A stretch of DNA of 64,000 nucleotides, taken from an uncultured Lachnospiraceae bacterium (GTDB lineage Bacteria; Bacillota; Clostridia; Christensenellales; UBA1242). The position numbers and the translations under genes are program-made. This document shows, piece by piece, positions 8,331-50,900 of the stretch. Position 1 is the stretch's first letter. Every line of letters begins with the position of its first letter. The notes under the pieces are model-generated. The model saw only the letters and a list, made by a program, of their open reading frames with translations. It was not told where the DNA came from and did not search any database. The stretch covers positions 113,588 to 177,587 of the forward strand of contig CAZSGM010000001.1 in assembly GCA_964606505.1 (NCBI GenBank), read 5' to 3'.

Positions 8331-8517
8331 AGCAAAAAATAGTAAAGCAGACGGCGCGCGAGAAGTGCTGGGTGTGCGGCGTGTTTAGATTGCAGTGGCA
8401 GACGGGAATTGCGGCGGGTGGGTTTTGATTGGTGCGGGTAAGGCAAACGGCATTGCGGCGAGTGCCACGATTGCAGAGGGGAAGTGCTTTGATTGGTGCG
8501 GGGGTTATTCAATTTGT

Positions 8518-8547
8518 TTGCAAAAAATGTGTCAATTGTGGTATACT
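8518..8547 (+). promoter_or_regulatory. Extended -10 promoter of the Big_2/MBG lipoprotein gene
   Basis: TTGCAA (8518-8523), 18-nt spacer ending in TGg, TATACT (8542-8547). Confidence 0.55.
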
Positions 8548-8575
8548 AAAACAAATGGGAGCGAGTGGGACACAA

Positions 8576-11500
8576 ATGAAGAATTTATTCAAATATTTTG
8601 GGGTTATGTTGGCGGTGATTGTTGCGTCGATTATGTTTGTTGGCTGCGACGAGGTTTCGCTGGAGGGCATAGAAATTGAGGGCTTGCCTAGCGAGGTTGT
8701 TTCGGTGGGCGAAACCTTTGAGTTGCAGGTAGTGTTCAATCCTGAGAACGCGACCGACAAGCGCGTGGAGTTTTGGACGCCGCAAAATGACCTCATCAGG
8801 CTCGAACAAGTAACTGAAACGCTAGTTTCCGTCGAAACAATCGGCGCGGGGCAAATAACGATTTTCGCGCGCGCCCTTGACGGGAACCTCGCCGCGTCCG
8901 TAACTTTCACAATTATCACAGGCTCGCTCAATCTAATGTTCGGGGAGGCAGTTAACGGCGTCATAACTCGCACCTACAACGCGCAGCCGCAGCAGGTTGA
9001 AATCGTCAACCCATTCGACGGCGTTATCTACACTTATATAAAAGAGGGCGAAACACAGGGCAGCACAACCGCCCCAACCGACGTTGGCAGGTACAAGGTT
9101 ACCGCGTCGGTCGATTCAACCAGTTACATCGGGCAGTGTGAGGCGACGCTCGTAGTTTTGCCGCAAACGCTCGAAGTCCGCGCGGACGGCAAAAGTAAGG
9201 TCTACGGCGCGAGCGACGTTGCGCTCACTAAGCGCATTAACGGGCAAATTTTTGACGAGGACGTCGTAATTGACGGCAGCCTCACTCGCGAAATCGGCGA
9301 GGACGCGGGCAACTACAAAATCGTGCAGTCGGAACCGTTTGCGGTCAGGGGCGAGCACGCCGGCAACTACATCGTTAAGTTTGTGGAAGGTAACTTCTTT
9401 ATCTCCAAAGCGCCCGTGCAGGTAAATGTTTATGTTCCCGCGATTTATTACGGGATGGCGCCTACATCTGTTCCGACCTACAGCGTTGAGGGGCTAAAGA
9501 ACGACGACACGGCGGACGAACTTGGGCTGAGTATTGCTTACCCTGATGAAATGAAAAACGCGGGAAGTTATGATTTGGTCATCAACTCAACCAACACCAA
9601 CTACGAGTGCAACTTCTCTACAACTAAGGCGTATGTCTACAAAGCACCAATAACGCTGACCGTTGCTGACGCCGAAAAGGTTTACAAGTTTGACGACCCA
9701 ACATTTAGTTATTCAATCTACAACTCCCGCAACGCGGCAGACACGACGAAATTGTTTTACGACGATACCCTCGATTTGAGTTTCTCAAGGCAAGAGGGCG
9801 AGGACGCGGGGAACTATAATGTAACACTTGTTTGCAACACCGAAAACAGTAACTACAGCCTCACTATTAGAAGCGGAAAACTCAAAATTAAAAAGCGCAA
9901 CATTTTTATAATGCCGCAAGACGCAACTAAGCGTTACGGGCAAGTCGACCCTGAATTTAAGTACGAATATATGCTCTACGAGGGTTATTACGAGCCTGTG
10001 GAGAATGAAGTAATCGTTGAACTATCAAGGGAAGAGGGTGAAGATGTTGGGGAATACCATATTGAGTCAGTCGCAAGTTACAGTGCTAACTATGTTGTTG
10101 ACACGTGGACGGCTACATTTACAATCACTAAGGCGATTGTTTCTATTAAGGTAGACGACGTTACAATCGCGTACAAGGACGCCGAGCCAAGTTACACGTA
10201 CACTGTCGACCCAGAAAAGGACGCTTTGCTTGCAGACAACAAGTTTGTGTTTGAGTTCACGCGCCCTGCAGGCGAGAACGTTGGGAATTACAGCGTTTCA
10301 ATCAATATAAAAACCGACGACAGTAACTACGAACTTTCGACCGAGTCGGGCACGTTGACGATTAGGGAGCGGTATCTATATTACGATATTGGCTCGCTCA
10401 CAATGGCGTATTATCAAAATTTTGACAGCTCAACAATTCGCGTGATTTTAGACACTGAAGTCAGCGACGCAAACATTGAAAACATAGTTGTAACTGAAAA
10501 TATTAATCTCGACATTCCGTGGAGAAACGACATTGGCGAGTATGAGATTACCGCAACTCTGAAAAATCCTGTTCCTAACTACAAGATTGAGTTTTCTAAA
10601 GGCTGCCTTTCGATAAGAACGGCATACGTCCGCATTTATGTTGAAGATTTTGAGGCTTATTTTGGGGACGATATTGATTTCGCTGAGCATTTAATATACG
10701 AAGATGATAGCGCAGTAATTTCGCTTGACAAAACCGCCGACTCAGTTGAGTTTGCTTGCTCATTGTACGACGCAAGTGGCGTGGTAGTGAGTGGATACCC
10801 AACTGTTTTGGGGACGTATACTGCTAGGTGTACGGCGACAACTCCTGAGGGAAAAAATAATTACAACATCACAATTGAGGACGGGCAATTTAACCTCAAG
10901 CAAGCAGAAATTACGTTGGAGTGCGACGACATTACCGTGGTTTACGGGCATCCGATAACTTGTTCGCCAAGAATAACGGACATAAAAGGGCAATTTTTGG
11001 GTAATCAACAACTTGGCAGAGCCATCACGGGCTCGGACGTCGGGGAGCAGACGCTGTATTTCGGGTTGATTGAAAACCTTTACAGCGAGAACTACAAACT
11101 CATTTATACGCCCGTAACTGTTACAATCACGCCTGCGCCTGTAGTTATTGATATTGCAGGAAAACAGTTTAAGTACGGGGACGAGAAAGCCTTTACCTAC
11201 ACGTTTGGCGAGGGTACGGACGAGGTGTTCTTGCAGGATATGCAGAACCTGTTGATTACGTTGAGCGGCGCGGGAACTAATGTCGGCACATACGATATTG
11301 ATTGCCTCTATCTTGAAGTTGGCGACAAACACAACTACGACGTAACCGTGAACGGCGCGCAATACACGATTGTTCCGCGCGAGTACAAAGTGAAAGTTAA
11401 CGACGCTACCAAAAAATACGGCGAGGCTGACCCAACATTTACCTTTGCGCTCACAGAGAGTAGCGACACGCTGCTTGAGGGCGACGTGCTTGAACTCACT

Positions 11501-11896
11501 TACAGTAGGCAGGACGGCGCAACCGTTGGCGTGTACGACATAACGGCGACGGCAGCTGACCTCGGGTCAAACTACGATATTTCTGTGCAAGGCGGGGTAT
11601 TGACAATTACAAAAAGAAGTGTTACAATAACAGCCAACGACCTCACGATAACGGAAGGGCAAACCCCAACATTTACCTACACGTTGAGCGGCGACGCGAT
11701 TTTAAATAATGACATTGAGTTTAGTCTCACGTCTGAGGGGACAACGGCGGGTACGTACGACATAACAATAAATATCACTAAAAACAACGCCAATTACGAC
11801 GTAACTTGCGTTGCGGGCGAACTTACTATTAACCAAAGTTCGACAGACGCTCCCGACGCCCCCGCGTTGCCCAACACGCCGAATGTGTCTGAGTGA
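8576..11896 (+). CDS. Surface lipoprotein: signal peptide with lipobox, one Big_2 domain, ~10 MBG (YGX-type) repeats
   Basis: The internal start MKNLFKYFGVMLAVIVASIMFVGC (lipobox FVGC) is preferred over the track start 8429. Big_2-like segment VGETFELQVVFNPENATDKRVEFW. Repeated K[VK]YGxxDPxF[TS]Y...SR[EQ]EGED[AV]GxYxI modules. Confidence 0.85.
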   Translation: MKNLFKYFGVMLAVIVASIMFVGCDEVSLEGIEIEGLPSEVVSVGETFELQVVFNPENATDKRVEFWTPQNDLIRLEQVTETLVSVETIGAGQITIFARALDGNLAASVTFTIITGSLNLMFGEAVNGVITRTYNAQPQQVEIVNPFDGVIYTYIKEGETQGSTTAPTDVGRYKVTASVDSTSYIGQCEATLVVLPQTLEVRADGKSKVYGASDVALTKRINGQIFDEDVVIDGSLTREIGEDAGNYKIVQSEPFAVRGEHAGNYIVKFVEGNFFISKAPVQVNVYVPAIYYGMAPTSVPTYSVEGLKNDDTADELGLSIAYPDEMKNAGSYDLVINSTNTNYECNFSTTKAYVYKAPITLTVADAEKVYKFDDPTFSYSIYNSRNAADTTKLFYDDTLDLSFSRQEGEDAGNYNVTLVCNTENSNYSLTIRSGKLKIKKRNIFIMPQDATKRYGQVDPEFKYEYMLYEGYYEPVENEVIVELSREEGEDVGEYHIESVASYSANYVVDTWTATFTITKAIVSIKVDDVTIAYKDAEPSYTYTVDPEKDALLADNKFVFEFTRPAGENVGNYSVSINIKTDDSNYELSTESGTLTIRERYLYYDIGSLTMAYYQNFDSSTIRVILDTEVSDANIENIVVTENINLDIPWRNDIGEYEITATLKNPVPNYKIEFSKGCLSIRTAYVRIYVEDFEAYFGDDIDFAEHLIYEDDSAVISLDKTADSVEFACSLYDASGVVVSGYPTVLGTYTARCTATTPEGKNNYNITIEDGQFNLKQAEITLECDDITVVYGHPITCSPRITDIKGQFLGNQQLGRAITGSDVGEQTLYFGLIENLYSENYKLIYTPVTVTITPAPVVIDIAGKQFKYGDEKAFTYTFGEGTDEVFLQDMQNLLITLSGAGTNVGTYDIDCLYLEVGDKHNYDVTVNGAQYTIVPREYKVKVNDATKKYGEADPTFTFALTESSDTLLEGDVLELTYSRQDGATVGVYDITATAADLGSNYDISVQGGVLTITKRSVTITANDLTITEGQTPTFTYTLSGDAILNNDIEFSLTSEGTTAGTYDITINITKNNANYDVTCVAGELTINQSSTDAPDAPALPNTPNVSE

Positions 11897-16764: not shown

Positions 16765-19427
16765 ATGAATAAAAGCGAATTTGAAAATGTGAAAAAGTTG
16801 GGGGGGGGGGGTATTTAGTTGCTAAAAATAGCGGCTTAACCACTCGAAATGATGCGGACACCTGCAAAAATATGCAGGATAACCCCCATTTTTTGCAATA
16901 TTTGCAAAATTGTGAAAATGTGCAACATAATGGTAATTTCACAAAAAAAATCACTCAAAACAATGCAAAATTGCAATGCAAAAATTCATTTAAAAATAAT
17001 GACGAATTAAATTTAACAAATAATGATTTATCTATTAATTCGCACAATCAAAATAATCGCAAAAATAATAGTGTATCAAATGCGACTAGCAAGTGCGCAC
17101 AAAAAGATACATTAAAGAATATTGCGAGTGAAAATTTTACTCCTTTTAAAAATAGTTATAATAATGTAAGTTATAAAAATAATGCAACTCAAAATGCTAG
17201 TATGAGTTGCAAAAATAGTGTAAGTTGTAAACGCGATGTAAGTTGCCAAAGTAAGGCGGGTTACAAAAGCACAGCGTATTATGAAAACGGGATAAACAAC
17301 AAAATTTGCACGACAAAGTGTTCCGCTACGACAAAAATTTGTTTGTGGATTTTCTTGTTTGTTGCGTGCCTCGCGGTTACGATCGGGTTTGGCTACTTTT
17401 GCGGAAGCAACGGCAGCCTCAAGGTTGCACCTGAAATTGAAACCGCCTCAGCAGCAGGCGAAACTTGGAGCGGTAGCGGCACGCAAGCCGACCCGTACCA
17501 AATTTCAAATTATACCGACTTGCTCGCGCTTTCTACCGCTTGCAACACGCCAACAAGTGGAACAACTTACAATCACTATCAAAGTGTGTATTTTAAATTG
17601 ACAGCAGATATAACAATAGCAGCGGCGGACTTAAATAATACAACGACCTCCACAACTTGGACGCCAATCGCCTGCGATCCAACAGGGGTTAATTATGCTA
17701 ACTGCTATTTTTCGGGTATTTTTGACGGAGATGGGCACACTATAACTTACGCGGGGGATGTAACTGTAAATGTCGGCGTTTCTACTGCTTCAAGTCCAAA
17801 TTTATATTATGGCTTGCTATTTGGATATGTTTTGGGCGACGCTAGTGATACTGCTAGTGCGACGTATGGAATTGTTAAAAATACCAACATAACATTCGGA
17901 GCCGCTAGTAGTTCAGCCACCGCTTTTACTTTGAAACTTGTTGCGGTTAGTTCCAATAACTGCATTGGAACGTCTCAAGTTGGTGGACTTGTTGGCCGTT
18001 TAAGCAATGGCAAGGTTTCACAATGCAAATTTAATGGTAAGCCATTTAATTTTACAGTTGAATGTGATAGTATAAGTGGTTGGGATCGTGGTTTTGCAGG
18101 AATTGTCGGATATACGTCAAGTTCCAGAGTGGACAATTGCGAATTTAATACCGATTATTCATTTTCGGATTTGCCTACTGGGATTTTAGAGGGCGGTGCA
18201 GCCGTAGTTGGGTATGCACCTAATAGCACAATCATCGAAAAATGCAAGGTAAATGGGAATGTAACATTTTTAAAAGAGGCTTCGGGAACTAATCGCGCAG
18301 AACTTGGTGGAATATTGGGGAGTGGCTCAGCAAATGTGAGCAATTGTGGTTTTTATGGTAACTTTGTTTGCAAGTGGCGGTCGGGTTCAGGGACTAAAGC
18401 GGGTGCAATTGCTGGGGGTGCTACTAATATTGAAAATTGTGTTATAGAGGGGGAAGTAACTTTAGGGGAAAAAGGCGGGGCTGCATCCTGCTCGGGGATA
18501 ATAGTCGGTAGCGCTACAAGTGTTTCAAATTGCTATGCTAATGTGAGCAATTCATCACTTTGTATGACTGGCACGGATGGTGAGTTTGGGATAATCGCAG
18601 GTAGTGTAACGAATATGAGCAATTGCGCAATAAATGTGCAATTAATTGATTTAATAAGGGCGACTAGCCTAGTATCCTATGCTAGTGGCACAGTAAACAA
18701 TTGTATAGCAATTGTGGATGTTGGGTCATATAGCGGGACTCTATATCCATTTTCTAATGGGTTTTATAATTGTGTAATAATAGCATCAGGGACAAATGTT
18801 ACTGCAGCGTACCCAATTAAATCCAATACCACCAACACCTCAGATACGACTAACGGGCTTTATTCACTAACATCAACTGACGCAAACCTTAGCGAGTTGA
18901 AAAGTAAAACCACCTATACATCGGGGTCAACTCATTTCACTTGGAACACTGACGGCGATGTTGCGGGGAGCACAACAGGTGGGCACGCGTGGGATTTTGC
19001 AAACACTTGGATGATTAACAGCACTATGAATGATGGGTATCCAACGCTGCAAATGCTGATAACATCCTACAACATCACGCTCAACGTAACCACTAATCTT
19101 AGCGGCTCCACCTTGGGAACAACCACAGGCTCAAGCGGTTCATCCTCAGCAACCGCCACGGCAAACCCTGCCGACCAGTTCATAATTTACCGCCTTGACG
19201 AGTCTGGAAACCTCGTCAACCAGTTTGTCGTCCGAAACGGCAGCACGGTTACCTTTGAAGTCGACAAAAACAAATCCTTTACTATAATGATTAACTACAA
19301 ACTTTATATGGTAACAACAATCGGAACCGAGTCGACAAACAAGAAAACATACACTCCAACTGCCGACACGACAATCGACATCGACATAACCGCCCCTTCA
19401 GGCGTCAACAACTGGATTGTTATTTAA
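16765..19427 (+). CDS. GLUG-repeat surface protein paralog A, interrupted at the 5' poly-G tract (phase OFF as assembled)
   Basis: AAGGAG RBS, then ATG 16765. The leader MNKSEFENVKKLGGGG hits TAG after the 12-G tract. The main frame (track ORF 16872-19427) is open back into the tract and fuses if the tract is 13 or 10 G. Architecture: Asn-rich N-region, TM helix ICLWIFLFVACLAVTIGFGYF, GLUG repeats, conserved C-terminal domain. Confidence 0.8.
16800..16811 (+). repeat. Homopolymeric G12 tract (candidate slipped-strand phase-variation site)
   Basis: Counted directly: the final g of block 16791-16800 plus 11 g. Confidence 0.9.
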
Positions 19428-21009: not shown

Positions 21010-21921
21010 ATGAAACTTAATGATTGGATAGAAATTTGGGCACAGACAAGTTTCGTCAACATCAAAGAAAGAAGCCATGACGTTTATAATTACTACCTCA
21101 CTTTTCACATCTTAGAGCGTCTTGGCAATTTGCAAGTCGAGGAAATTTCGCAGGAAACGCTGCAGAGTTATGTTTTGTCGCTTGCACTTGGAGACAAATG
21201 TTTTTCAAGCAACACTATCGCGGAGAGTTTTCGCGTGCTGAAGGCGTGCTTGCTCGATTATTATGAAAAATACGACATTAAGCCTGTGAAGTTCAAGGGT
21301 GTCAAAATTCCTACGACGGCGCGCCGCAAAATTAGGTGTTTTACCGAGGGCGAGCAGCGCAGGATTGAAAACCGCGTCAACCTTGTTCGCAACCCGAGCG
21401 AAATTGGCGTACTGGTCTCGCTTTACACAGGGTTGCGGCTGGGCGAAGTGCTAGCGCTGACGTGGAACGACGTCGACTTTAGCAAAAACCTAATCTACAT
21501 AGATAAGGCGCTATACTATAAAGGGAAACAGATTGTAATTTCGACGCCAAAAACGCCGTCGTCCATTCGCGTAATCCCGATACCGCAGTTTTTGCTGGTG
21601 TTGCTGCGCGAGAGGAAGAAACACGCGGTTGGCGAATACGTTGTTGCGGATGAGTTGGGGTTGCCGATTATACCGCGCACGTACCAGTACAGGTTTTACG
21701 CGCTGCTCAAGCGGGCGAAGGTCGAGAGACGGGGTTTTCACTCGCTGCGCCACACGTTTGCAACGCGCGCCCTTGAGTGTGGTATGGACGTTAAGTCGCT
21801 CGCCGACGTTTTGGGACACGCGAACCCTGTCGTAACACTCAAGCGTTACGCGCACTCAATGCTAGATTACAAAAAAACTATGATGAACAAAATCGGCAAA
21901 TTGTACTCGCGCGAGTATTAA
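21010..21921 (+). CDS. Tyrosine site-specific recombinase (phage integrase family)
   Basis: GLRLGEVLAL (Arg I), HSLRHTFAT (H-x-x-R), LGHANPVVTLKRYAHS (His/Tyr) and an N-terminal SAM-like domain. GGAGG RBS before ATG 21010. Confidence 0.9.
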   Translation: MKLNDWIEIWAQTSFVNIKERSHDVYNYYLTFHILERLGNLQVEEISQETLQSYVLSLALGDKCFSSNTIAESFRVLKACLLDYYEKYDIKPVKFKGVKIPTTARRKIRCFTEGEQRRIENRVNLVRNPSEIGVLVSLYTGLRLGEVLALTWNDVDFSKNLIYIDKALYYKGKQIVISTPKTPSSIRVIPIPQFLLVLLRERKKHAVGEYVVADELGLPIIPRTYQYRFYALLKRAKVERRGFHSLRHTFATRALECGMDVKSLADVLGHANPVVTLKRYAHSMLDYKKTMMNKIGKLYSREY

Positions 21922-22346
21922 CTTGGCAATTTGCAAACAATTAGCGTTTTATTGAAATAATCATTTCCAATTAAAACGCATTTTAACAAAACGAAAAACG
22001 CGTTGCTTGTACCTCCTTATGTTTTGGGGTAAGTAACGCGTTTTTTGTGTGTATTTGAGTAGGTTGCTCGAGTTATTGCATTGGGGAGTGGTTGAGTTGT
22101 TGGTTAATTTTGGCGGTTTCAATGGTGTTTGCTTTGCGCTTGTGAGTGTTTTGTGGGGCGTATAGGGACTTTGAAGATTATAAAAAATTGCAGGGGGCGG
22201 GGGGTGTTCGGGGTATTTATATTGCAGATGTTTTGCACGTGGTTGATTTGCTTGTATTTTTGCGCGTTTTACGGTTTGGTTTTAGGCTTATTTTGGGCGC
22301 ATTTTTGTTTAATTTTTGGGCAGGGGTAAGCCGATTGTAAGAAAAA

Positions 22347-22383
22347 AAATCTTTCGCTTATGTGTCCCATAAGCGAAAGATTT
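22347..22383. repeat. Left recombination-site candidate (IR-L): 16-bp-arm palindrome around the asymmetric core TGTCC
   Basis: AAATCTTTCGCTTATG TGTCC CATAAGCGAAAGATTT, preceded by A8. On the minus strand this reads as a hairpin followed by T8. Confidence 0.85.
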
Positions 22384-22391
22384 ACACCATT

Positions 22392-22420
22392 ATTGTAGCA
22401 AATTAGATAAAAAATATCAA
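22392..22420 (-). promoter_or_regulatory. Near-consensus sigma-A promoter inside the invertible cassette, currently pointing away from gene 22596
   Basis: Minus strand: TTGATA (22420-22415), 17-nt spacer ending in TGc, TACAAT (22397-22392). Confidence 0.6.
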
Positions 22421-22505
22421 ACATTTTGCCAAAATTATTGAAAAATCATTAAAAAATGGTCATTTTTTGCTATTTTTCTCCTCAAAAAATCGAATTTTGA
22501 AGAAT

Positions 22506-22536
22506 ATCTTTCGCTTATGGGACACATAAGCGAAAT
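22506..22536. repeat. Right recombination-site candidate (IR-R): same arms, core GGACA (reverse complement of the IR-L core)
   Basis: 22506-22535 is the exact reverse complement of 22352-22381 (30/30). Confidence 0.85.
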
Positions 22537-22595
22537 AAAATGCCCTGAAAACGCAGATAATAACTGACGGGGCACAAAATAAGGAGTTTTACGCT

Positions 22596-25349
22596 ATGGA
22601 AAAAAATAGGATAGGCAAAACCATACTACTGAATGTGGGGTTGGTTATTGCAGTGATTATGCTTGGGGTGGGCGCGTTTTTTGCGACACGGGCAGAAAGC
22701 GGCGAAGCGGGCGATTTTGTTTTGACGGGCGAAGGTGTTGGGGCAGGCGACTACGTAACTGCAGACGGGGCGCACAAAATAGGTGTTGCAACAGACGAGG
22801 GCGGGGGTACTACAATTGAATATTTCAACACTGCTGCGCCCGAGACGACGTACATGCTAACTGCTAGCACCACGACGTCGGCGGCAGGGGTTGAGACGAC
22901 AACCTTGACAGGAAAACTTGGCACGGACAATAAAAATGCAACGTTTGTTATGTTGAACGATAACGCCATACTTTGCGTTTCACATATTAAGTACGCAACG
23001 GCGAGCGGGAACGTTGTTTTGTGCAGGTACACGCCGTTTGTGAAAACATACACGCCGACAGCGGACGCAAACGGGGTAATTGAGGTTTGGCGCAATGACG
23101 CAAAAGTTAGCGCATTTGCAAACTTCCAAGCCGCGTTCAGCTTTGCGCAAAACAACGACACGATTAAACTAAAAAGCAACTTTTTGGCTTCTGAGGGCGC
23201 GGCGCTCGTTGGTAAAACTCTCACAATTGATGGCGGCAACTACCTGCTCGACAAGTCGCAGTGGGCGAACACGGTTTTTGCCGTTGCAGAGGACGCGCAA
23301 CTCACAATTAACAACCTAGACATAGACGGTGGGGCAACCAACTGGGCGGTCGACTTCGACGCTGTTACTTTTGAAGGCGCGACAATCCCGCTTGTAGCGG
23401 GTTCAGCGGATAATGACCCACAAACAAGTTATCCTGCCGTTACTTCAAAGGGCGAGTTGATTGCTAATAATTTAAACATTAGCAATATTTATTCGTCGAC
23501 AGCTGAGGGGATTGGGTTATTTGTGGCAAAAGGGAAAATAAACATTAGCAATAGCGCATTTTCACACTTAGCTTCAAGTATTGGGGGTGCTATGCGCATA
23601 GGGTGCGATATCATTGAGGAAAGTTTGGATAGTTACCCCGTAGAAAGCGTAGTTTTTAATAGTGTCGATTTTACTAATAATTATGCAGCGGCTTGGGGTG
23701 GTGGTGCAATTTATATCGGAAACATTGGCGAGGGGAGTTTTGAAGATTGCAACTTTGATACAAATGCGGCAAGTGGGTTAAATGGCGGCGGCGCAATTAG
23801 TATGTACACACCAGATTATGCTGCGTACAATTTGGGGCTAACTTATGGCAAAATAGATATAAACAATTCAATTTTTAATAATAATTGGGCAGGGCGCTGT
23901 GGCTTTGCAATTTATAACCGCGATGTAGAATTTACAATAACGAACACAAAGTTCACTGGGAATATCGGCGCATATCGTCCTGATGGGGCTGTCGCCACGT
24001 TTTTTTGTAGAGTAAATAGGTCAAACTATCGTTTCGCTGTGCAGATAATTAAGAATTGTGTATTTGAAAATAACCAAGGAGGTGTTGCCTGCATTGCAGA
24101 CAATGCGGGAGCTGCGGATATTAGAATTTCTGATACTCAATTTAAAAACAATGTGGGGAGTTCGAGCACATTGTTGTATACAGGTGTTGGGGAAATTGAT
24201 AACTGCACATTTGAAAATGAGCAAGTAACTGGAAGTGTAATAAGCGTGCCAATGTACAACGGAGATAGTCGTTATGAAAACGCAGGGCTGACGGGTCCAT
24301 CGCTAACAATCAAAGACACAACTTTCACAGGCACTCCTGACGGCGTTGATGATATTTCAATGAAAAAAGAAGAAGGAAGGGTCGATGTAGCCACAGAGCC
24401 CAAAATAATAATTGAGGGCGAAACAAAGGCAAACATTTCAATGGAGCACGGTGCAGAACTAGATGTTGACGGAATGCTAGATGGTAGTGTTACTTGCGCG
24501 GTGGACACCCCTAGCGATACTAATGTAACAGTTGGCACAAACGGCAGCATAACTGGCGGCGTTGTGCAGTACTATAACCTAACCATAACCTACCCTAACC
24601 CCGACAACGACACCGAAAGCCTAACTGAAACAATAACTATTGCGGGCGGCGCAACCAGTTCGCACGCGATTGAAATGTTGCTCGGCGTGAGCAAGGAAAA
24701 CCACACGCTCGCGCTTTACACAGATAGCGCGTGCACAATTGTGTGGGACTACAACTGCGACGGCGCGGAAACGCTGTACGGCAAATGGGAGTGGTCGGTT
24801 ACCATAAACTATTATGACCAAGGCGGGGTAAGGTTTACCGGAACGCACGGCGCGGCGTTTGCGCAACGACACATCAACGGAAGAAAAACAATTATAGACA
24901 CGCCAACAAAAGGCGGTTACATCTTTGATGGGTGGTACTTGGGCGACTCAACTTGCTCAGACGAAAGCAAAAGGGTTACTGAACTTAGCGCGGACGTGAA
25001 TTACGAAAGCATTTCGCTTTACGCTAAATGGCGAGTTTTTGAACAAACAATCACGCTTACGTGCCAAAATTTCACTACGCAACAGTTTATGGTGTACGTG
25101 TTTATTGGGGACGACCTTGTTATGCAAGTAAAGCCGACCGCAACAACAACCATCACGCTTAGCAGGCTAAAAAACTATGACAAAACGGTTCGCATTTGTT
25201 TTGTGTACGGTTACCACGGCAAAATTGAGTACACAAGTTTGACAGGCGCGAAAGCAAACGGGCGCAGCGTCAACGTTTCGCTTGTCGAAAATACGCAAAT
25301 CAATTACAAAATAACAACTCCAAACGTCAACGCAAGCATAATTGTTTAA
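22596..25349 (+). CDS. Large surface protein: N-terminal signal/anchor, PMP/pectin-lyase-like beta-helix repeats, Listeria-Bacteroides-type repeat, C-terminal domain related to the GLUG paralog tails
   Basis: AAGGAG RBS. GGAIY/GGGAIS-type repeats (NNYAAAWGGGAIYIGN, GLNGGGAISM). GGYIFDGWY motif. The C-terminus ...NVNASIIV aligns with the ...VNNWIV[VI] tails. Confidence 0.85.
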   Translation: MEKNRIGKTILLNVGLVIAVIMLGVGAFFATRAESGEAGDFVLTGEGVGAGDYVTADGAHKIGVATDEGGGTTIEYFNTAAPETTYMLTASTTTSAAGVETTTLTGKLGTDNKNATFVMLNDNAILCVSHIKYATASGNVVLCRYTPFVKTYTPTADANGVIEVWRNDAKVSAFANFQAAFSFAQNNDTIKLKSNFLASEGAALVGKTLTIDGGNYLLDKSQWANTVFAVAEDAQLTINNLDIDGGATNWAVDFDAVTFEGATIPLVAGSADNDPQTSYPAVTSKGELIANNLNISNIYSSTAEGIGLFVAKGKINISNSAFSHLASSIGGAMRIGCDIIEESLDSYPVESVVFNSVDFTNNYAAAWGGGAIYIGNIGEGSFEDCNFDTNAASGLNGGGAISMYTPDYAAYNLGLTYGKIDINNSIFNNNWAGRCGFAIYNRDVEFTITNTKFTGNIGAYRPDGAVATFFCRVNRSNYRFAVQIIKNCVFENNQGGVACIADNAGAADIRISDTQFKNNVGSSSTLLYTGVGEIDNCTFENEQVTGSVISVPMYNGDSRYENAGLTGPSLTIKDTTFTGTPDGVDDISMKKEEGRVDVATEPKIIIEGETKANISMEHGAELDVDGMLDGSVTCAVDTPSDTNVTVGTNGSITGGVVQYYNLTITYPNPDNDTESLTETITIAGGATSSHAIEMLLGVSKENHTLALYTDSACTIVWDYNCDGAETLYGKWEWSVTINYYDQGGVRFTGTHGAAFAQRHINGRKTIIDTPTKGGYIFDGWYLGDSTCSDESKRVTELSADVNYESISLYAKWRVFEQTITLTCQNFTTQQFMVYVFIGDDLVMQVKPTATTTITLSRLKNYDKTVRICFVYGYHGKIEYTSLTGAKANGRSVNVSLVENTQINYKITTPNVNASIIV

Positions 25350-32182: not shown

Positions 32183-32282
32183 CACAAAGAAAGTTGTTGC
32201 GGGCTAAGGAAATTGTTGGGGCTTGAGAAATTATTAGGGGTCAAAGAAGTTTGTTAGTGGCACAAAGGAAGGGAATGTTATG
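32183..32282 (+). repeat. Five tandem ~19-20-bp degenerate units (AAGGAAATTGTTGGGGC-like) running into the start codon of the mTERF-like gene
   Basis: Units start at ~32183, 32204, 32223, 32242 and 32262, with an extra copy at 32126. Each contains an SD-like AAGGAA/AAAGAA/GAGAAA word. Confidence 0.6.
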
Positions 32283-33569
32283 ACAATAGAAGAAATTTTA
32301 ATGAGCAGATATGGGTGGAAGCAAGAAGATATTGAGGCTAAGCGCGAGGTACTTGCGCACATTTCACATCTAACTGACGATGATAAAGTTTACGCAAAGG
32401 GGAATTTTTACGTAAAAACATTTTTTATGACTTATGCCGACCTTAGGAAGGTGATAAAGGCATTTCCGCAAATGCTGGGGCTGTCGGAAGATTATGTTAT
32501 TAACAAGATAGATTACTATGTATCTATGTTTGGGAACGCCGAAAGTGTTCGGAAAGCGTTTATTAAATTTCCGCAAATTTTAAGCATTTCAAACGAAACA
32601 ATTAACGCGAAAATAGAGAAATACAAGAAGAGATTGCACTGCGAAAGAGCGCACGTTGGGGCTATGTGGGCTGAGTATCCGTCAATTCTTCATTATTCAG
32701 ATAAATATATTGACGGAAAAATTGACTACTTAATAAAAACCTTTGAGGTCGAAGAGTACGAACTTGCTTGTATACTTAAACGTTCGCCACAGATTTTGGG
32801 GTTATCCAGCGAAACCATTACTGCAAAGCGCGACTTTTATTGCGATGAACTTGGGTTTAGCCGCAAAGCCGTCGTTAAGCTTGTTAGGGATTTTCCGACA
32901 ATTTTGGGGCTTTCCAACGAAACGGTTTTGTATAGGTTCAACTTTTTCAAGGCGCAGTATGGGTTGGACGATAAGCATGTCGCGAAGATGTTTACAATGA
33001 TACCGCAGATTGTTGCTCTGCCCGACGAAACCATAATGAACAAGCAACATTTGTTTAGCGATGTGCTCGGCGTAACTAAGGGGGAGTTTGCCTCAATTAT
33101 TAGCAGACACCCGCAGGCGCTCACAATATCGGCGACCGCGCTGAAGTACAAGGCGGACCAACTTGCTTCACTTGGTATTGCGCGAAAGGAACTGCTTAAT
33201 GACCCGATGATTTTGAGTTCGCCTGCCAATATGCTTAAAGTTAGGTACATTATTTTGAGGCAGGTTGCAACGCGCGAAGAGATTTTAAAGTCCAAGGGTT
33301 GGTATATGTTCAACCAAAGCAAGTTGTACTCTAGGTATGCGTATATAAAGGATGTATTAAAAAAAGAGCCTACCTTGTCTGACTTGTTGCGTAGCCAACA
33401 GCGCTTTGAAATGAAGTTTGGATGGATTGGGATTGATGATGACTGGACTGAACCTAAATTTACAATGGCAATAGTTGACGAATTGGCGCAAAAGGTGGCA
33501 AAAGAAGAAAAAATCGAACTTACGCGCAAAGACCGTGAGGTATTAGGCACTTGCATAGAGAAGGAGTAA
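32280..33569 (+). CDS. mTERF-repeat protein (helical ~32-aa repeats)
   Basis: At least eight repeats of the pattern FPQ[IM]L[GS]LSxExIxxKxxxxxxxxGxxxxxVxKxxxxxP (e.g. FPQMLGLSEDYV, FPQILSISNETI, SPQILGLSSETI, FPTILGLSNETV, IPQIVALPDETI, HPQALTISATAL). Confidence 0.75.
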   Translation: MTIEEILMSRYGWKQEDIEAKREVLAHISHLTDDDKVYAKGNFYVKTFFMTYADLRKVIKAFPQMLGLSEDYVINKIDYYVSMFGNAESVRKAFIKFPQILSISNETINAKIEKYKKRLHCERAHVGAMWAEYPSILHYSDKYIDGKIDYLIKTFEVEEYELACILKRSPQILGLSSETITAKRDFYCDELGFSRKAVVKLVRDFPTILGLSNETVLYRFNFFKAQYGLDDKHVAKMFTMIPQIVALPDETIMNKQHLFSDVLGVTKGEFASIISRHPQALTISATALKYKADQLASLGIARKELLNDPMILSSPANMLKVRYIILRQVATREEILKSKGWYMFNQSKLYSRYAYIKDVLKKEPTLSDLLRSQQRFEMKFGWIGIDDDWTEPKFTMAIVDELAQKVAKEEKIELTRKDREVLGTCIEKE

Positions 33570-39885: not shown

Positions 39886-40134
39886 TATAAAAGTATAAAA
39901 TCTCCTAACAAAATAATTGCTGAAGGTTTAATTCCCCAAAAAACAAAGTTTATTTGCCACCAAATATTGAAATTATTTTTAACTTTTAAGATTAATATAA
40001 AGAAATTTTAAAAAACTTTGCAAATAATGATACATAAGTATTGACTTTTAAAAATTACATGTTAAAATGTAAGAAAAAGGATTGAAAAGAATTTTATCTC
40101 TTTCAGTCTTTTTACATTTAGGTGGAGGTGAAAT

Positions 40135-40554
40135 ATGGAAAAATTGAGAAAAGAAATCCTAGAAAACAATAGTAAAGTTGCGCTTGAAATAAAAAGAATA
40201 AATGACGAAATATTGCAAATCCCAAATTATTTAACAGAAGAAGAAAAAGAGACATATGGGGAAATAATAAAAGATTTAAAAGAGAGCATTAAATACAGAT
40301 TATCTCGCAGTGATGTTGAACTAATTTGGCAATATTGTCAATTGAAAATTATGCGAGATAGGGCATGGAGAGAATATAATAAAAATCCAGATAGATATAT
40401 GCGAATTGTGACTGGAATTTGTAGTGACGGGAAAACTCCCAAAGTTATAGTTAAAGAAAATGAACATTACAAAACTTTGATAGATTGCAATAAACAATTA
40501 GAGAAAGTATTAAAAGATTTAAGATTGACTCCAGAGATGAGAAGGGGGAAATAA
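40135..40554 (+). CDS. Phage terminase small subunit, P27-family-like
   Basis: 139 aa. The pattern IPNYLTEEEKETY...DVELIWQYCQ...LRLTPEMRRG matches the P27 TerS layout (from memory). GGAGG RBS. Confidence 0.6.
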   Translation: MEKLRKEILENNSKVALEIKRINDEILQIPNYLTEEEKETYGEIIKDLKESIKYRLSRSDVELIWQYCQLKIMRDRAWREYNKNPDRYMRIVTGICSDGKTPKVIVKENEHYKTLIDCNKQLEKVLKDLRLTPEMRRGK

Positions 40555-40614
40555 TAAAGTCAACGGCTTTTGGTAAATAAAAGGTTATGTTATAATAAAA
40601 ATGGAGGTGTTTAT

Positions 40615-41004
40615 ATGTTTACAGGTTATTTTGGGAAAGTTAAAAGTTATCCCCAAGATAAGGGCTATAGATTTGTGTCTATTGCTAGATTTAATAAGTT
40701 TTGGAATGGAGACGAATATAAAAGGCTTGCTCCACCTGCTGAAATTATTAAAATTGAAGACGAGGAACTTTATACGGATTTATATTATGAAAAAGTTTTA
40801 AATAAACTCAGCCCACAAAAAGTGTATGATGAATTAGGAGATAATGCAGTACTTCTTTGTTATGAAAGATGGTCAGACATAAAAGAAGAGAAAACTTTTT
40901 GTCATAGACGAATTGTTGCAAAATGGTTGGAAGATAATTTAGGAATAAAGGTAGAAGAATTAGAAAATGAGAACAAAAACGATAATGAACAATTGCATTT
41001 TTGA
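40615..41004 (+). CDS. DUF488-like protein
   Basis: 130 aa with an LLCYERW....FCHRRIVAKWL motif typical of DUF488. GGAGG RBS before ATG 40615. Confidence 0.55.
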   Translation: MFTGYFGKVKSYPQDKGYRFVSIARFNKFWNGDEYKRLAPPAEIIKIEDEELYTDLYYEKVLNKLSPQKVYDELGDNAVLLCYERWSDIKEEKTFCHRRIVAKWLEDNLGIKVEELENENKNDNEQLHF

Positions 41005-42181
41005 TGTTGTAAAAACCAATGATTTTGAAAAAGTTTTTGTTTACGCATCAGAAAAATTAGAATTAGAAAAATTAATATATAAATTTACATCGTCCCCGAT
41101 TATTGGTGGCGATGTTGATTTTTGTAATGTTTTGTTTGGGAAATATTTTAGCGATAATAATGATTTAGAATTAGGTAAAGAAATTTATGATGATTTTAAA
41201 TTGGATTCAAATTACATTTTAAGTAACGTTCAAAAACTTGCCTTGTCAATACTATATAAATCATACAGACCACAGCACATAACTGAGCATAATAAAAGAC
41301 TCTTCAAGAATGTGATTAAAAATAAAGACAAACTAATTGACTCAATTTCCAAACAAATAAGTGAAATATCATTACATTTACAAGCCTTTAGAGAATGCAG
41401 CATAGAGGAATTTATAAAAGATATTTCTTATAAGGATTTGCTAGTTATTGATAATCGTAGACTTAATTTTATTGATGATAAATTAATTCGGCAATTGCTT
41501 GATTTTAATATTAAATTTGTCATTTTATCTAAAAAAGATTTATTAACCATAAAACATAATCAAATTTTAAAATCACAAAACTTAAATGCTTACTCCAATA
41601 TTAAAATAAAACCAAAGATAATATCATGTAAGACAAAGACTAATATAGTCCAAAAATTATTTAGTACTATTGAAGATGAAAATATTAAAGATGTAGAAAT
41701 CAAGCAATTAACGTTGGTACAATTTAATGCGTTACGACAAAAATACATGAGTAAACAAATTCATTTTTGGGGAACTCCAAAAATTTGTTGCGGTTTATTT
41801 ACTGACAATAAATTATTTGGAGCTTTTGGATTAACAAATGACTATAGGAATTCACCGCCTAGTGAAATTGAACAACCATGCGTATATTTATTGTCGGATT
41901 TTGTGACGAATTCGAAGATAAGAAAATTGAGCCGATTAGTATTATATTGTTTATTAAGCAAAGAAGTGAAATTATTAGCAGAACGATTATTAAATAAGGA
42001 AATAAAATCAATTTATACTAATGTGTTTACGAAAAATATGTCTTCTATCAAATACAGAGGATTGTTTACATTACAAAGCAGAAATCAAAGGCAAGACGGA
42101 AGTTATAATTTAACATACTTTTCGACAATGGGGGAATGGGATTTAAAGGAGGGATTTGAATTGTGGAAACAGAGATTATAA
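40967..42181 (+). CDS. Hypothetical protein (404 aa), unknown function
   Basis: Long ORF in an AT-rich context. Overlaps neighbours on both sides, suggesting an operon. No motif recognised. Confidence 0.55.
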   Translation: MRTKTIMNNCIFDVVKTNDFEKVFVYASEKLELEKLIYKFTSSPIIGGDVDFCNVLFGKYFSDNNDLELGKEIYDDFKLDSNYILSNVQKLALSILYKSYRPQHITEHNKRLFKNVIKNKDKLIDSISKQISEISLHLQAFRECSIEEFIKDISYKDLLVIDNRRLNFIDDKLIRQLLDFNIKFVILSKKDLLTIKHNQILKSQNLNAYSNIKIKPKIISCKTKTNIVQKLFSTIEDENIKDVEIKQLTLVQFNALRQKYMSKQIHFWGTPKICCGLFTDNKLFGAFGLTNDYRNSPPSEIEQPCVYLLSDFVTNSKIRKLSRLVLYCLLSKEVKLLAERLLNKEIKSIYTNVFTKNMSSIKYRGLFTLQSRNQRQDGSYNLTYFSTMGEWDLKEGFELWKQRL

Positions 42182-43029
42182 AAATAAACCCACGAGATAT
42201 TAAATTATTAAAAGTAAATGCCAGATATATGAAACCTGAAGAATACGAAAAACTTGTTTCAAATATTAAAAAAGATGGACAACTAACATCTGTTCCATTT
42301 TGTTTTTATAATGAAAATCACGAAATTGAGGTTTTGTCTGGTAATCATAGGGTTATGGCATCTATCGATGCCGGACTTAATGAAATTGAAGTTATGCTAT
42401 GCAAGGACAAGTTATCAAAAGAACAAGCATTGGCTATTCAATTAAGTCATAATTCTATTTCTGGTCAAGATGATGAAGAATTGTTAAGAAGATTATACGG
42501 AGAATTAGAAAGTTTAGAATATAAGGAATATTCGGGTTTAACAGATGAATTCATCAATTATTGTAAAGAGATTGAAAAAGATTTTAAAGTACCAACTTTA
42601 TCATATCAAGCACTAAATTTATTATTTCTTCCCGAAGAAATTGAAGAGATAAAACAAGTTCTTGAAAGCATACCCTATTTATTAAGCTCTAACCACATCT
42701 TGTCAAACAAGAAGGATTATGACAACTATTTAGAATCCACAACGACAATATCAAAGTGTTTAAATATTAAAAATCCATCAACAACTTTTCTTGCCATGAT
42801 TAGATTAGCAAAAGAAAATATAGACAAATTGAAAGAACTTGCACTTAACAATGAAGATATTGATTATATTCCACTTTCCATAATTCTAGGACGAAGCGAT
42901 ATAAACAAAGATGATGCGATGATTATTGATAAAGCCTTAAACAAACTGATAAGCAAAGGTGAGATTAAAAAAAATAATAAGGAGAAGGGTTTGGCAATAT
43001 TGGCTAATTTATATCTGGAACATAAATAA
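42163..43029 (+). CDS. ParB N-terminal (ParB/sulfiredoxin nuclease-like) domain protein
   Basis: INPRDIKLLKVNARYM...VLSGNHRVMASIDAG pattern. GTG start after GGAGGG. Confidence 0.7.
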   Translation: METEIIKINPRDIKLLKVNARYMKPEEYEKLVSNIKKDGQLTSVPFCFYNENHEIEVLSGNHRVMASIDAGLNEIEVMLCKDKLSKEQALAIQLSHNSISGQDDEELLRRLYGELESLEYKEYSGLTDEFINYCKEIEKDFKVPTLSYQALNLLFLPEEIEEIKQVLESIPYLLSSNHILSNKKDYDNYLESTTTISKCLNIKNPSTTFLAMIRLAKENIDKLKELALNNEDIDYIPLSIILGRSDINKDDAMIIDKALNKLISKGEIKKNNKEKGLAILANLYLEHK

Positions 43030-47797: not shown

Positions 47798-47979
47798 ACT
47801 TTTCTCCTGTGCTATTATTATAACATAACTTAGGTAGTTTTGTATTGAATTTGTTTTGATTTTAAATAAAAATTTGTTATACTTTTATTAAGTTTATCGT
47901 TGCATTGTTTGCGTCCAAAGTTTTGGCTAAAAATAATAATTTTTTGCTCGACGCAAATAATAGTTGCAAAGGAGTAAGT

Positions 47980-50900
47980 ATGCTTAGTCTTGAAACACAG
48001 AAGAAAAGTACGGCTGTCGCAAAAGTCCTAATCGCGCTTGCGGTTGTGATGTTCTCGTTTTTCGCGTTTTGTGCGTGCGGCGAGGGCGACGGAAAAACGA
48101 TTGATAAAATCGTTATAACGCAGTCCAAAATACAACTTGTTGTTGGCACGTCAGAGCAGTTGACGCTCACGTTAACGCCGTCTAATGCGACCGACGTCAG
48201 CCTCGCGTTTGTTAGCGCGGATACGAGCGTTGCGACAGTTAGCCGCGAGGGTATCGTCCAAGCAATCGGCGTTGGTTCAACCACTGTTTCGGTAACGGCA
48301 ACCAAGGGCGGCGCGAGTGCGGTCGTTCCTGTCGTCGTAACCAACACGCCTGTTGAACTTAGCAAGGTCAGCGGCGTGCAGTTCGACGGCGAAAAGGTTG
48401 TCTGGGACAGGGTCGACAACAACTACGGCTACGAGGTTACGCTCAACGACACAGTCTACGACAAAACGCTAGTAACCGAGTACTTTACCGACTTTGAAGT
48501 GGGCGTTGAAAACAAAATCAGCGTCCGCGCGCTCGGCAACTCAAAGGCTTACCTTGATTCAGAGCCATCCGACGATTTTGTGTTCACGCAACTATCTACG
48601 CCAACAATCTCAATCGAACAGGGCGAAATTGTTATCGTGCCAAACTCGGACGCGACTATTTTTGAGATACTGATGAATGGGCAGACGCACAAAAACAGGT
48701 TTACCTCGCAAAGGTATATCATTGAGAGCGACCTTGAGGCGGGTTTCTACGCCTTTAAAGTGCGCTCGCTCGGCAACACCAGCCAAAACACCTACAACTC
48801 AAGTTTTTCTAACACGATAACAGTTACAAAACTCTCCGCGCCAACAAGCGCACAGGTCGAGGACAGGGTTCTAACCTTTGAAAGCGTCGTCGGCGCACAG
48901 AGTTACGACATAAAGATAGTTAATAACGAAAACAATGAAACATCACTGCAGTCCATTCCTGCCGCCTCGTCATTTGTTGAGTACAACCTCGGCGAGGGGT
49001 ATCAGGCGGGGGCATACGACATTTTCATTATGGCAAAGGGCGACAAGCACACAACGCTTGACTCGGCGTTCTCTACACAGTTTGCCGTCGACAAACTTTC
49101 GAAGCCTGCAAACTTTAAGATTACCAACGGGCTTCTTACGTGGGACACGGTCGACAATGCGACGGGTTACGCGCTAAGTGTCGAGCACAACGGCGAAGTT
49201 GTTTTGGAGGAAGAAATTGTTGACCCACAGTTTGAGTTTGCTAAGAAATATATCGACGCGGGCAAGTACAAACTGACCGTTACCGCAACGGGCGGCAACG
49301 TGGGCGACGTCAATAGGTTCGTGAACTCGGACGCGTCGGACGAACTCGAGGTTACAAAACTCCCAATGCCGGAAAGTTTTGCCATTAGGGGCGACGACAT
49401 TGTTTGGGGTACGGTTGAGCAAAGCACGGGTTACTCGATTTTGCTTGACGACAGCCTCCCACTTCCAGTGCAAGCGCACAATTATATCGACCTATTTGAT
49501 ACCGCGACCCAAACTTTTGTTGCGAAAAAATACTCAATTCGCACAAAAGCGATGGGAAACAATAAGGAAATCATTGATTCAGAATACAGCCAAACATTTG
49601 AGTGCAAGAAAATCGGCACAGTCGACCCCGACCAAACAATGCTTAGCGGCGGCGTGGTTACGTGGCAAGGGCTTGCAGATGTGCTCATCTACGACGTGTT
49701 TATCAATGGCGCAGAAACGCCTCTTCGCGTGAGCGGAAACTCAATTGATTTCTCAAATTCGATTTACGCTTCAGGAAACTACAGTATTAAAGTTCAAGCA
49801 ATCAGTTCAGATAACCTCTCCGTTAGCGGCGAGCAATCTAGTGCAATAACATTTACAAAGCTACCTAGTCCAAGCGGCTTTAAAGTGGATGGCGGCGTGC
49901 TTTATTACGAAATGCCTAGCGGCGCAAGTTACAGTGGCTACAACTTACTCGTGGGCAGAACCGAGTACGCGGCAATTTCTGACGAGTACCTTGATTTTGA
50001 TAAGTACTTAAGCGACGACGAGCAGCAAAATGTTTGCCTGCAAGCAATCGGCGACGGGCAAACGACGATTACATCCAACTATAGCGACCCTATCTCGCTT
50101 CACAAGGTTTCTAGCGACATCGGGCTTAAAGTTGAAAACGGGATTTTGAGCTGGAACGCGCAAACGGGCGCGACAGGCTACGAAATCGAAATTGCCTACA
50201 CAGTGGGCGAACTCACGACTGTTCAAACCAAGGCAATAGACGGTGCGAACGCAACAATGCTCAACCTGCAAAGCGACTCAATGTTTGAGAGTGCGGGCGA
50301 CTACAGCGTCAGCATTAAGGCTATGGGGGTTACGAGTCTTGTTTCGGGTTCAACAACCTACACTTACGACATAACGAGTCGCAGTTCGGCGGCAGTGTCT
50401 GTGAAGAAGTTGGCGGCGATTACCGAGTTGAAGGTTGTCGGCGGGCAAATCACGTGGGAAGCGGTAGACGGCGTTACTTACTATGAAGTGGTTGTCGACG
50501 GCGTTTCGCGCGGGAGTGAGTGCGGGGCGGCAAACTTCTACTTCATCGCGGGCAGCGCGGGCGCGCACACGGTCTGCGTATATGCGCGCGGCGACCAAGC
50601 GAATGTTTTGGATGCAAAGATTGTCGATAACACAATCTCCGTTACAAAACTTTCCAACGTGTTTAATATGAGCATAGTTGGCGCCGCCGTAAGGTGGAGT
50701 TCAATTGTCGGCGCAAACACGTACGATGTCGAGGTGCGCAACGAACAAAACGAAGTTGTTAAGAGTGCGCAATCCATCGCAGCAACAACATATACATTCT
50801 ACGGCCTAGAGGGTGGCAAGTCCTATTACGTGCGCTTAAGAGCAAACGGTAACAACACAAACATCGTCAGCGGCGACTTTGGCGCGCAGGCAGGGACTCA

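Follow-up and report, generated by a model that had tools for sequence, protein, structure and literature searches.

Can the short segment that lies between a tyrosine recombinase gene and the gene of a large surface protein be turned round, so that the surface protein is switched on and off, and is it the neighbouring recombinase that turns it? The question is raised by a stretch of 64,000 nucleotides from an uncultured Lachnospiraceae bacterium (assembly GCA_964606505.1, contig CAZSGM010000001.1), the whole of which is called the window in what follows. An AT-rich segment of 124 bp (22382..22505, strandless) is enclosed there by two inverted copies of one 30-bp sequence. This locus is most probably a promoter inverton, that is, a phase-variation switch for the surface protein run by the adjacent recombinase. 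An initial annotation, made from the letters alone, had proposed an invertible ON/OFF promoter switch seen in its OFF state, and this proposal is supported by an architecture, a half-site and a promoter that are conserved in relatives, as well as by segments found in flipped orientation, including that of the related locus L086.

Repeat pair and recombination sites

The inverted repeat is perfect over its 30 bp. Positions 22352-22381 (TTTCGCTTATGTGTCCCATAAGCGAAAGAT) are the exact reverse complement of 22506-22535, with a spacing of 124 bp, and the coordinates, the relation and the spacing that had been annotated were all reproduced from the sequence. The runner-up among exact inverted repeats of the window (gap 20-3000 nt) measures 15 nt and is located in AT-only low-complexity DNA. 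The arm-N5-arm pattern of the sites is present at two places only in the 64 kb, and 0 of 100 dinucleotide-preserving shuffles matched it.

The left recombination site (22347-22383, strandless) is a palindrome of 16+5+16 nt with TGTCC at its centre (22363-22367), and its overlap with the right site corresponds to 22352-22381. The right recombination site (22506-22535, also strandless) is composed of a 14-bp inner arm, the centre GGACA (22520-22524) and an 11-bp outer arm, and is followed by TAAAATG, without a U-run, as had been pointed out. The initial annotation gave arms of 14 bp to each site, and this needs correction for the outer arm of the right site, with its 11 bp. The opposed asymmetric cores were found as described, and so was the geometry of loxP/FRT minimal sites: inverted arms flank an asymmetric spacer at both places, the two sites are in inverted orientation, and a dyad-centred alignment across the family described below yields a common half-site.

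Promoter, surface-protein gene and recombinase gene

Inside the segment, a sigma-70-type promoter was located on the minus strand (22392..22420), with TTGATA and TACAAT separated by 17 nt, an extended-minus-10 TG and a score of 10/12. It points left, away from the surface-protein gene, in agreement with the initial annotation. The end of its -10 element is 10 nt from the left repeat, so that it is predicted to fire outward across one repeat. A simple promoter scan called no plus-strand promoter in 21800-22800.

The gene presumed to be controlled (22596..25349, plus strand) encodes a putative cell-surface protein of 917 amino acids that starts with a hydrophobic signal/anchor helix and contains a Listeria-Bacteroides repeat (TIGR02543, 28.3 bits for a cut-off of 20.95; the match to PF09479 is weak). 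The annotated start at ATG 22596 and its ribosome-binding site, AAGGAG at 22581..22586 on the plus strand, 9 nt before the ATG, are both present. Homologues of this protein, 41-58% identical, adjoin relatives of the switch and the recombinase.

The recombinase gene (21010..21921, plus strand), the product of which is presumed to be the invertase, is found 430 bp upstream of the switch and encodes a protein of 303 amino acids that matches PF00589 (2.6e-24) and PF14659, a SAM-like core-binding N-domain. No substitution of R143, K181, H244, R247, H270 or Y280 is seen when the protein is aligned with 23 relatives. The complete catalytic set and the two domains place the protein, by sequence, in the tyrosine recombinase superfamily, and the phage-integrase-family recombinase that had been annotated at this position is thereby borne out. 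The recombinase is 97-100% conserved among strains. Its nearest solved structures are Tn1549 Int (E = 6.7e-16) and then XerA, and it has no N-terminal arm-binding domain, since the match spans positions 171-450 of the 611 of the phrog_1 profile. It stays below the curated cut-offs of the NCBIfam FimB/FimE-type invertase (NF007370, 19.1 bits versus 221) and of the Xer and integron families (XerA, 84.4/220; XerC, 60.8/335; XerD, 35.4/330; integron integrase, 51.2/265). A protein scan of metagenome contigs with the recombinase rendered relatives at 29-30% identity only. An assignment as phage or mobile-element integrase was considered and rejected on the basis of an identity of at most 33% to any record of the phage collection, the missing arm-binding domain, and the lack of phage or transfer domains in the neighbouring genes examined.

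A family of recombinase and switch cassettes

A scan of a genome collection with the recombinase alignment rendered 80 loci, with relatives 39-53% identical, nearly all of them in metagenome-assembled genomes (MAGs) of Christensenellales, Oscillospiraceae and other uncultured gut Clostridia. The architecture was assessed in the 70 loci whose sequence continues for 300 nt or more past the gene, where we looked for an exact inverted repeat of at least 11 nt, with a gap of 80-260 nt, no more than 600 nt after the stop codon. Such a repeat pair was present downstream at 50 of the 70 loci, as compared with 8 of 58 in the 600 nt upstream of the gene and 3 of 54 in a stretch 2 kb further on. With a threshold of at least 13 nt the difference was sharper, 39/70 downstream versus 1/58 upstream and 0/54 further on. 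At 36 loci the repeat measures 15-27 nt; most often it begins 7-70 nt past the stop codon, and the enclosed DNA has a length of 102-176 bp.

Each copy of the family repeats forms part of an imperfect palindrome, and the alignment centred on the dyads resulted in a single half-site motif which reads, from the outside to the centre, T-K-T-N-C-A-Y-N-K-A-W-T-A. The best conserved positions are A(-5), found in 66/66 half-sites, T(-12), in 60/66, and C(-10), in 59/66. The arm of the window, CTTTCGCTTATG, fits the conserved positions, and the left site agrees with the motif in having T at -12, C at -10, A at -5 and T at -4. Moreover, half-site similarity correlates with recombinase identity (Spearman 0.58, Mantel p about 0.0005), as expected for a cognate pair.

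In most of 37 loci the segment has a best sigma-70 match of 10-12/12. The spacer of this match is nearly always 17 nt, and its -10 element is usually 3-27 nt from one of the repeats, with the promoter firing outward. It is directed toward the recombinase gene in about 23-26 of these loci and toward the downstream gene in 6-8 (L022, L039, L040, L053, L056 and L077, and probably L025 and L010). In the public assemblies, therefore, the cassette promoter faces the recombinase gene, leaving the cargo gene OFF, some 3-4 times as often as it faces the cargo gene. Recombinase gene and downstream gene share one strand, and the downstream products are proteins of several hundred to more than 1200 amino acids, many of them with signal-peptide or lipoprotein-type N-termini and two of them prepilin-like.

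The two palindromes of the window could in principle be ordinary hairpins, either terminators or a small repeated palindromic element, near the integrase of a mobile element, with no inversion taking place. Read on the minus strand, both sites are indeed called as terminator-like in a simple scan, and the relatives of the recombinase include phage and Tn1549-type integrases. We regard this as very improbable. The loops are exact reverse complements within otherwise identical arms, the palindrome has no further copies in the 64 kb, the combination of recombinase, paired sites and promoter recurs in relatives at 50 of 70 loci versus 3-8 in the controls, and segments are flipped between related loci, as shown below. 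The lack of an arm-binding domain in the recombinase, and of phage or transfer domains in the neighbours examined, also counts against a mobile element.

Several MAGs contain two family recombinase genes each, on different contigs (L039 and L067, L015 and L032, L011 and L084, L023 and L071), and at both L039 and L067 the full switch is present. The 3' flanks of L003 and L004 are nearly identical, while their upstream genes are unrelated. These cases suggest that the unit of recombinase and switch duplicates or moves as a module.

They also bear on the enzyme. Inversion might be catalysed in trans by a different recombinase, in the way of RecV of Clostridioides difficile or Mpi of Bacteroides, the adjacent gene being a bystander, and it is true that only 64 kb of the genome have been seen. 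Little credit can be given to this explanation, given that the tight adjacency of gene and switch is conserved across very different contexts, such as those of L003 and L004, that several two-cassette MAGs have one recombinase per cassette, and that half-site similarity follows recombinase identity. The adjacent recombinase is the presumed invertase of the window.

Orientation of the segment in relatives and strains

Related loci with collinear flanks were compared by measuring the identity of their segments both in forward orientation and as reverse complement. For seven pairs the reverse complement rendered the higher identity: L039 and L058, with flank identities of 0.93 and 0.71 (0.61 forward, 0.87 reverse complement), L021 and L025 (0.60 and 0.79), L013 and L053 (0.16 and 0.66), L040 and L048 (0.48 and 0.77), L040 and L067 (0.42 and 0.69), L056 and L054 (0.55 and 0.75), and L056 and L062 (0.40 and 0.76). 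In all seven pairs the direction of the predicted promoter switches along with the segment.

The comparison can be extended to the lineage of the window itself. The contig of L086 runs through the switch and encodes a recombinase 56% identical, and a surface-protein homologue 41% identical, to those of the window. Its sites, CTTTCATTTAT-CTACTAG-ATAAGTGAAAA and ATTTCGTTTAT-CTAGTAG-TTAAGCGAAAT, are about 120 bp apart, and its segment matches that of the window with an identity of 0.70 as reverse complement and 0.28 in forward orientation. The stretch equivalent to the promoter, CAAAATGTTTG...TATACT, faces the surface-protein gene. The cassette of L086 is therefore flipped with respect to that of the window, and the two would represent the ON and the OFF state, respectively.

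Two further relatives have the orientation of the window. L095, a megahit contig that reads through the switch, encodes a recombinase 98% identical and has a 27-nt repeat and a nearly identical segment. L092 and L088, which come from one sequencing run and encode a recombinase 69% identical and a surface protein 47% identical, carry the sites ATCTTTCGCTTATG-TGAAC-CATAAGTGAAAGAT and TTTTCACTTATG-GTTCA-CATAAGCGAAAA.

It may be asked, then, whether the copy in the window is a locked or decayed switch, the descendant of an inverton that no longer flips, in which case the surface-protein gene would be constitutively silent or dependent on read-through of upstream transcription. The two assemblies that span the switch in this species, the window and L095, are both OFF, and exact-site scans of metagenome and viral collections rendered no flipped sequence. 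On the other hand, the repeat is perfect over 30 bp in the window and over 27 bp in L095, the recombinase keeps its six catalytic residues and its high conservation among strains, and consensus assemblies give the majority orientation only. Most relatives were also assembled with the promoter to the left, as is expected for a phase-variable antigen that is mostly OFF. We consider a locked switch unlikely.

Contig ends were also inspected. Seven Logan contigs (k=31, seven runs) that carry the recombinase or variants 98-100% identical are interrupted within the left site, where 5-8 nt of the inverted repeat are still to come. For L001, L002 and L093, the terminal sequences of which were inspected, the last base corresponds to 22373, so that the inner arm of this site is entered by six nt only; L094 and L096-L098 end at a matching distance after the stop codon. 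A similar break is found in the 69% identical relative, where the adjoining contigs L092 and L088 share 2 nt at nearly this position. A simulation of the k=31 graph with a 30-nt repeat predicted a break at 22381 for one orientation as well as for both, and with a 27-nt repeat, as in L095, a break at the repeat end only if both are present. The observed position matches neither simulation, and the contig ends were therefore dropped as evidence for inversion.

Proposed mechanism of the switch

We infer that the copy in the window is still able to flip, that its enzyme is the adjacent recombinase, that the promoter is active and that leftward transcripts end at the left site. The recombinase would bind as dimers to two core-type sites, each with two inverted half-sites, and strand exchange between the sites would invert the 124-bp segment, which would not be deleted because the asymmetric centres TGTCC and GGACA face each other. 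In the OFF orientation of the window, leftward transcription would start at about 22385 and enter the left site at once. Since a 16-bp hairpin followed by U8 would be transcribed there, an OFF transcript of ca. 45 nt should end before the convergent recombinase gene. After inversion the promoter would adjoin the right site, where the hairpin would be shortened to 11 bp and followed by UAAAAUG. As no U-run exists past the right site, transcription should continue through a leader of ca. 95 nt to the ribosome-binding site and ATG 22596.

Folding is consistent with these roles. As minus-strand RNA, the left site forms a stem of 16 pairs (5 of them G-C) with a 5-nt loop, and just beyond it lies the U8 tract of leftward transcripts (22342..22349, minus strand; A8 on the plus strand). 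The predicted stability is -21.7 kcal/mol (z = -6.3), a value that 0 of 200 shuffles reached. The features of an intrinsic terminator, namely a stem with G+C, a short loop and a U-tract, are found here at the level of the sequence, and both the scan and the folding agree with the hairpin and T8 that had been annotated on this strand. The predicted ON-state RNA at the right site has an 11-bp stem of -18 kcal/mol and no U tract after it, which also agrees with the initial annotation. The A-run at the left site is found as A7 in L095, A5 in L092 and A8 in L006.

A second hairpin may contribute to the separation of the switch from the recombinase gene. The inverted repeat at 21991..22048 (strandless), 3' of this gene, has an A-run, 18-nt arms that are 89% complementary and a T-run, and looks like a bidirectional intrinsic terminator. 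The spacer in which it lies varies between strains, as ca. 170 bp of the window between the recombinase gene and the switch, at about 22097-22270, are missing from L001 and L095. This extra stretch is flanked by a degenerate direct repeat, GTGGTTGAGTTG... / GTGGTTGATTTG..., the copies being 151 nt apart.

It might also be that the flip is real and that its chief effect is other than ON/OFF control of the surface protein alone, the leftward promoter producing an antisense or short RNA that modulates the recombinase gene, with orientation-dependent control of switching as is the case with fimE. In most relatives only 10-70 nt separate the leftward promoter from the 3' terminus of the recombinase gene that it faces, and the site is without a U-run. 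In the window, however, the left site with its U8 tract and the hairpin at 21991-22048 separate the promoter from the gene over 430 bp. Insulation of the gene is therefore favoured, and antisense control appears quite unlikely here.

Weighing of the assignment

Several observations speak against the interpretation of the locus as a working switch or against parts of it. The promoter match, taken singly, is not above chance, since 3 promoter-like matches were found in this AT-rich stretch for 2.2 expected. The strictly asymmetric centre has 5 nt (3 nt in many relatives), which is below the 6-8-bp overlap of characterised tyrosine recombinases. An overlap of 6-8 bp would have to include symmetric flanking pairs, with cleavage inside a palindromic G/C pair on each side. 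No flipped copy was found in the species of the window, for which both spanning assemblies are OFF, and an exact scan of JGI metagenome contigs and viral contigs with the site pattern TTTCGCTTATG-N5-CATAAGCGAAA gave 0 matches. The correlation of half-sites and recombinases could be produced by linked inheritance alone. As for the terminator, the run of A (T in the outward direction) beyond the left site is absent in L086, and only 7 of 37 family loci have 5 T or more among the 8 nt that follow this site outward.

The promoter of the segment is credible because an equivalent promoter is conserved in relatives, and not because of the match alone: its -35/-10 region aligns with those of L086 and L088. 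This conservation, together with that of recombinase and paired sites and with the opposite orientations of related loci, carries the interpretation as a promoter inverton.

The terminator has to be judged separately. The initial annotation had the recombination site double as the terminator of the OFF state, which fits the lineage of the window and does not extend to the family. The outward T-run is limited to the few loci indicated above and missing in L086, and a terminator role is therefore not a conserved feature of the design. The recombination site as a family-wide terminator was rejected, the mean outward T count across the family being 3.0 at the left site and 2.2 at the right. That the left site and the fixed U-tract outside it would act together as a one-way terminator is plausible as a lineage-specific refinement, with the chances about evenly divided.

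Comparison with known systems

In Cre/loxP and FLP/FRT, inverted arms surround an asymmetric centre that sets the direction, sites in inverted pairs lead to inversion, and no arm-type sites are needed. The family described here differs in its centre, of 3-5 nt (about 7 bp with the flanking symmetric pairs) versus 8 bp, and in its arms, of 11-16 bp. The best PDB matches of the recombinase, as mentioned, are Tn1549 Int and XerA, and not Cre or FLP.

fimS of Escherichia coli is a short invertible promoter segment for the gene of a surface structure, with inverted repeats and with a recombinase gene immediately upstream (PMC2784873). The window resembles it in that the promoter is inside the segment, the tyrosine recombinase gene adjoins it and a surface product would be controlled. 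The differences are that one recombinase is present in place of two (FimB and FimE), that the segment has 124 bp versus 314 bp, that the arms are nearly perfect palindromes of 14-16 bp versus 9-bp repeats with imperfect flanking half-sites, and that the recombinase is outside the FimB/E family by the NF007370 score given above. No evidence for accessory sites of the IHF/Lrp type was obtained at the switch of the window. At the promoter-distal end of the segment, a dyad-symmetric AT-rich element (22463..22499, strandless; TTTTTTGC.ATTTTTC..G/CAAAAAAT.G..AAAA) is conserved in L086 at 1165-1197 and is possibly the site of an accessory protein factor.

The cwpV switch of C. difficile, to which the initial annotation had likened the locus, has its promoter outside a 195-bp segment. 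In its OFF state, a terminator that forms where the left repeat meets the inverted DNA stops the cwpV transcript itself, and recV is distant (PMC2784873). The likeness stands insofar as both are Firmicute systems with a tyrosine recombinase, a large cell-wall or surface protein and an intrinsic terminator in one orientation (PMC2784873). The logic is nevertheless closer to that of fimS. The promoter of the window is inside the segment and the recombinase gene is adjacent, no plus-strand promoter was called upstream of the segment, the sole strong promoter being inside it, and the predicted terminator consists of the site plus a fixed U-run outside it and would act on the divergent OFF transcript.

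A study of hCom2, a defined gut community (Microbiome, 2025), reported a group of invertons dominated by Clostridia, group 139, that are intergenic and have the gene of a tyrosine recombinase, of the tightly linked 'invertase group 35', within 5 kb (PMC11892184). Flipping was verified by read mapping, and the ratio of orientations shifted over culture passages (PMC11892184). The published segments are longer, about 205-227 bp between repeats versus 124 bp in the window, and the parts of that text available to us do not describe the anatomy of the sites, a half-site motif or the use of a terminator (PMC11892184). From its description there, to which our comparison is confined, group 139 with invertase group 35 may be the same family as the cassette of the window or a sister family (PMC11892184).

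Scope and significance of the cassette family

Promoter inversion is a well established phenomenon, and the mechanism proposed here, that of a promoter inverton similar to fimS, is not new. What goes beyond expectation is that the cassette family is so large and regular, that recombinase and site are linked by a readable code, and that a recombination site may serve as a terminator. In the literature we found no description of the recombinase family, of the half-site motif or of switches in Christensenellales.

A wider proposal is that of a portable module of uncultured gut Clostridia, made up of one small tyrosine recombinase and two lox-like sites that enclose a promoter segment of about 100-180 bp. 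Such a module would be self-contained and would have spread, often to several copies per genome, to positions before unrelated surface-protein, lipoprotein and pilin genes, with orthogonal invertase/site pairs that diverge together, and with the site recruited as an insulating terminator in the lineage of the window. Taken as a whole this proposal is tentative, and we hold it to be somewhat more doubtful than probable.

The locus provides a concrete candidate for a phase-variation switch of a surface protein in an uncultured, gut-associated lineage of Clostridia, whose nearest genomic recombinase relatives are in MAGs of Oscillospiraceae and Christensenellales. At least 50 cassettes of a little described family are available in which the enzyme, the core sites and the regulated promoter can be read from the sequence. 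The family could improve the annotation of invertons in Firmicutes, where read-based surveys find few, and could explain contig breaks that adjoin recombinase genes of this kind. It could also supply compact pairs of recombinase (gene product of about 300 amino acids) and site (about 29 bp) for genetic circuits. A recombination site that doubles as a one-way terminator would, if confirmed, be a neat design principle.

Other features of the window

Rfam and tRNA scans of the window rendered no matches, and exact look-ups of the surface protein, of the neighbouring ATPase and of the protein P0121 matched no record. Many very large putative surface proteins, with MBG, GLUG and Big_2 domains, are encoded in the window (8429-11896, 16872-19427, 47905-54159 and 56942-59419), among which only the gene at 22596 has a switch of the kind described. 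The stretch at 1800-2600, of 23% GC, contains dense AT-only direct and inverted repeats and no open reading frame.

A protein of 429 amino acids encoded at 32280-33569 has a strong match to the mTERF domain (PF02536, 2.9e-45, in three stretches), which is unusual for a bacterial window because this family is best known from organelles. A low-GC island at 40000-43000, with 26-29% versus about 44%, may have been acquired horizontally; it includes, at 40967-42181, the gene of a 404-amino-acid protein in which a phage GNAT-like domain and, weakly, a DAM-like domain are recognised.

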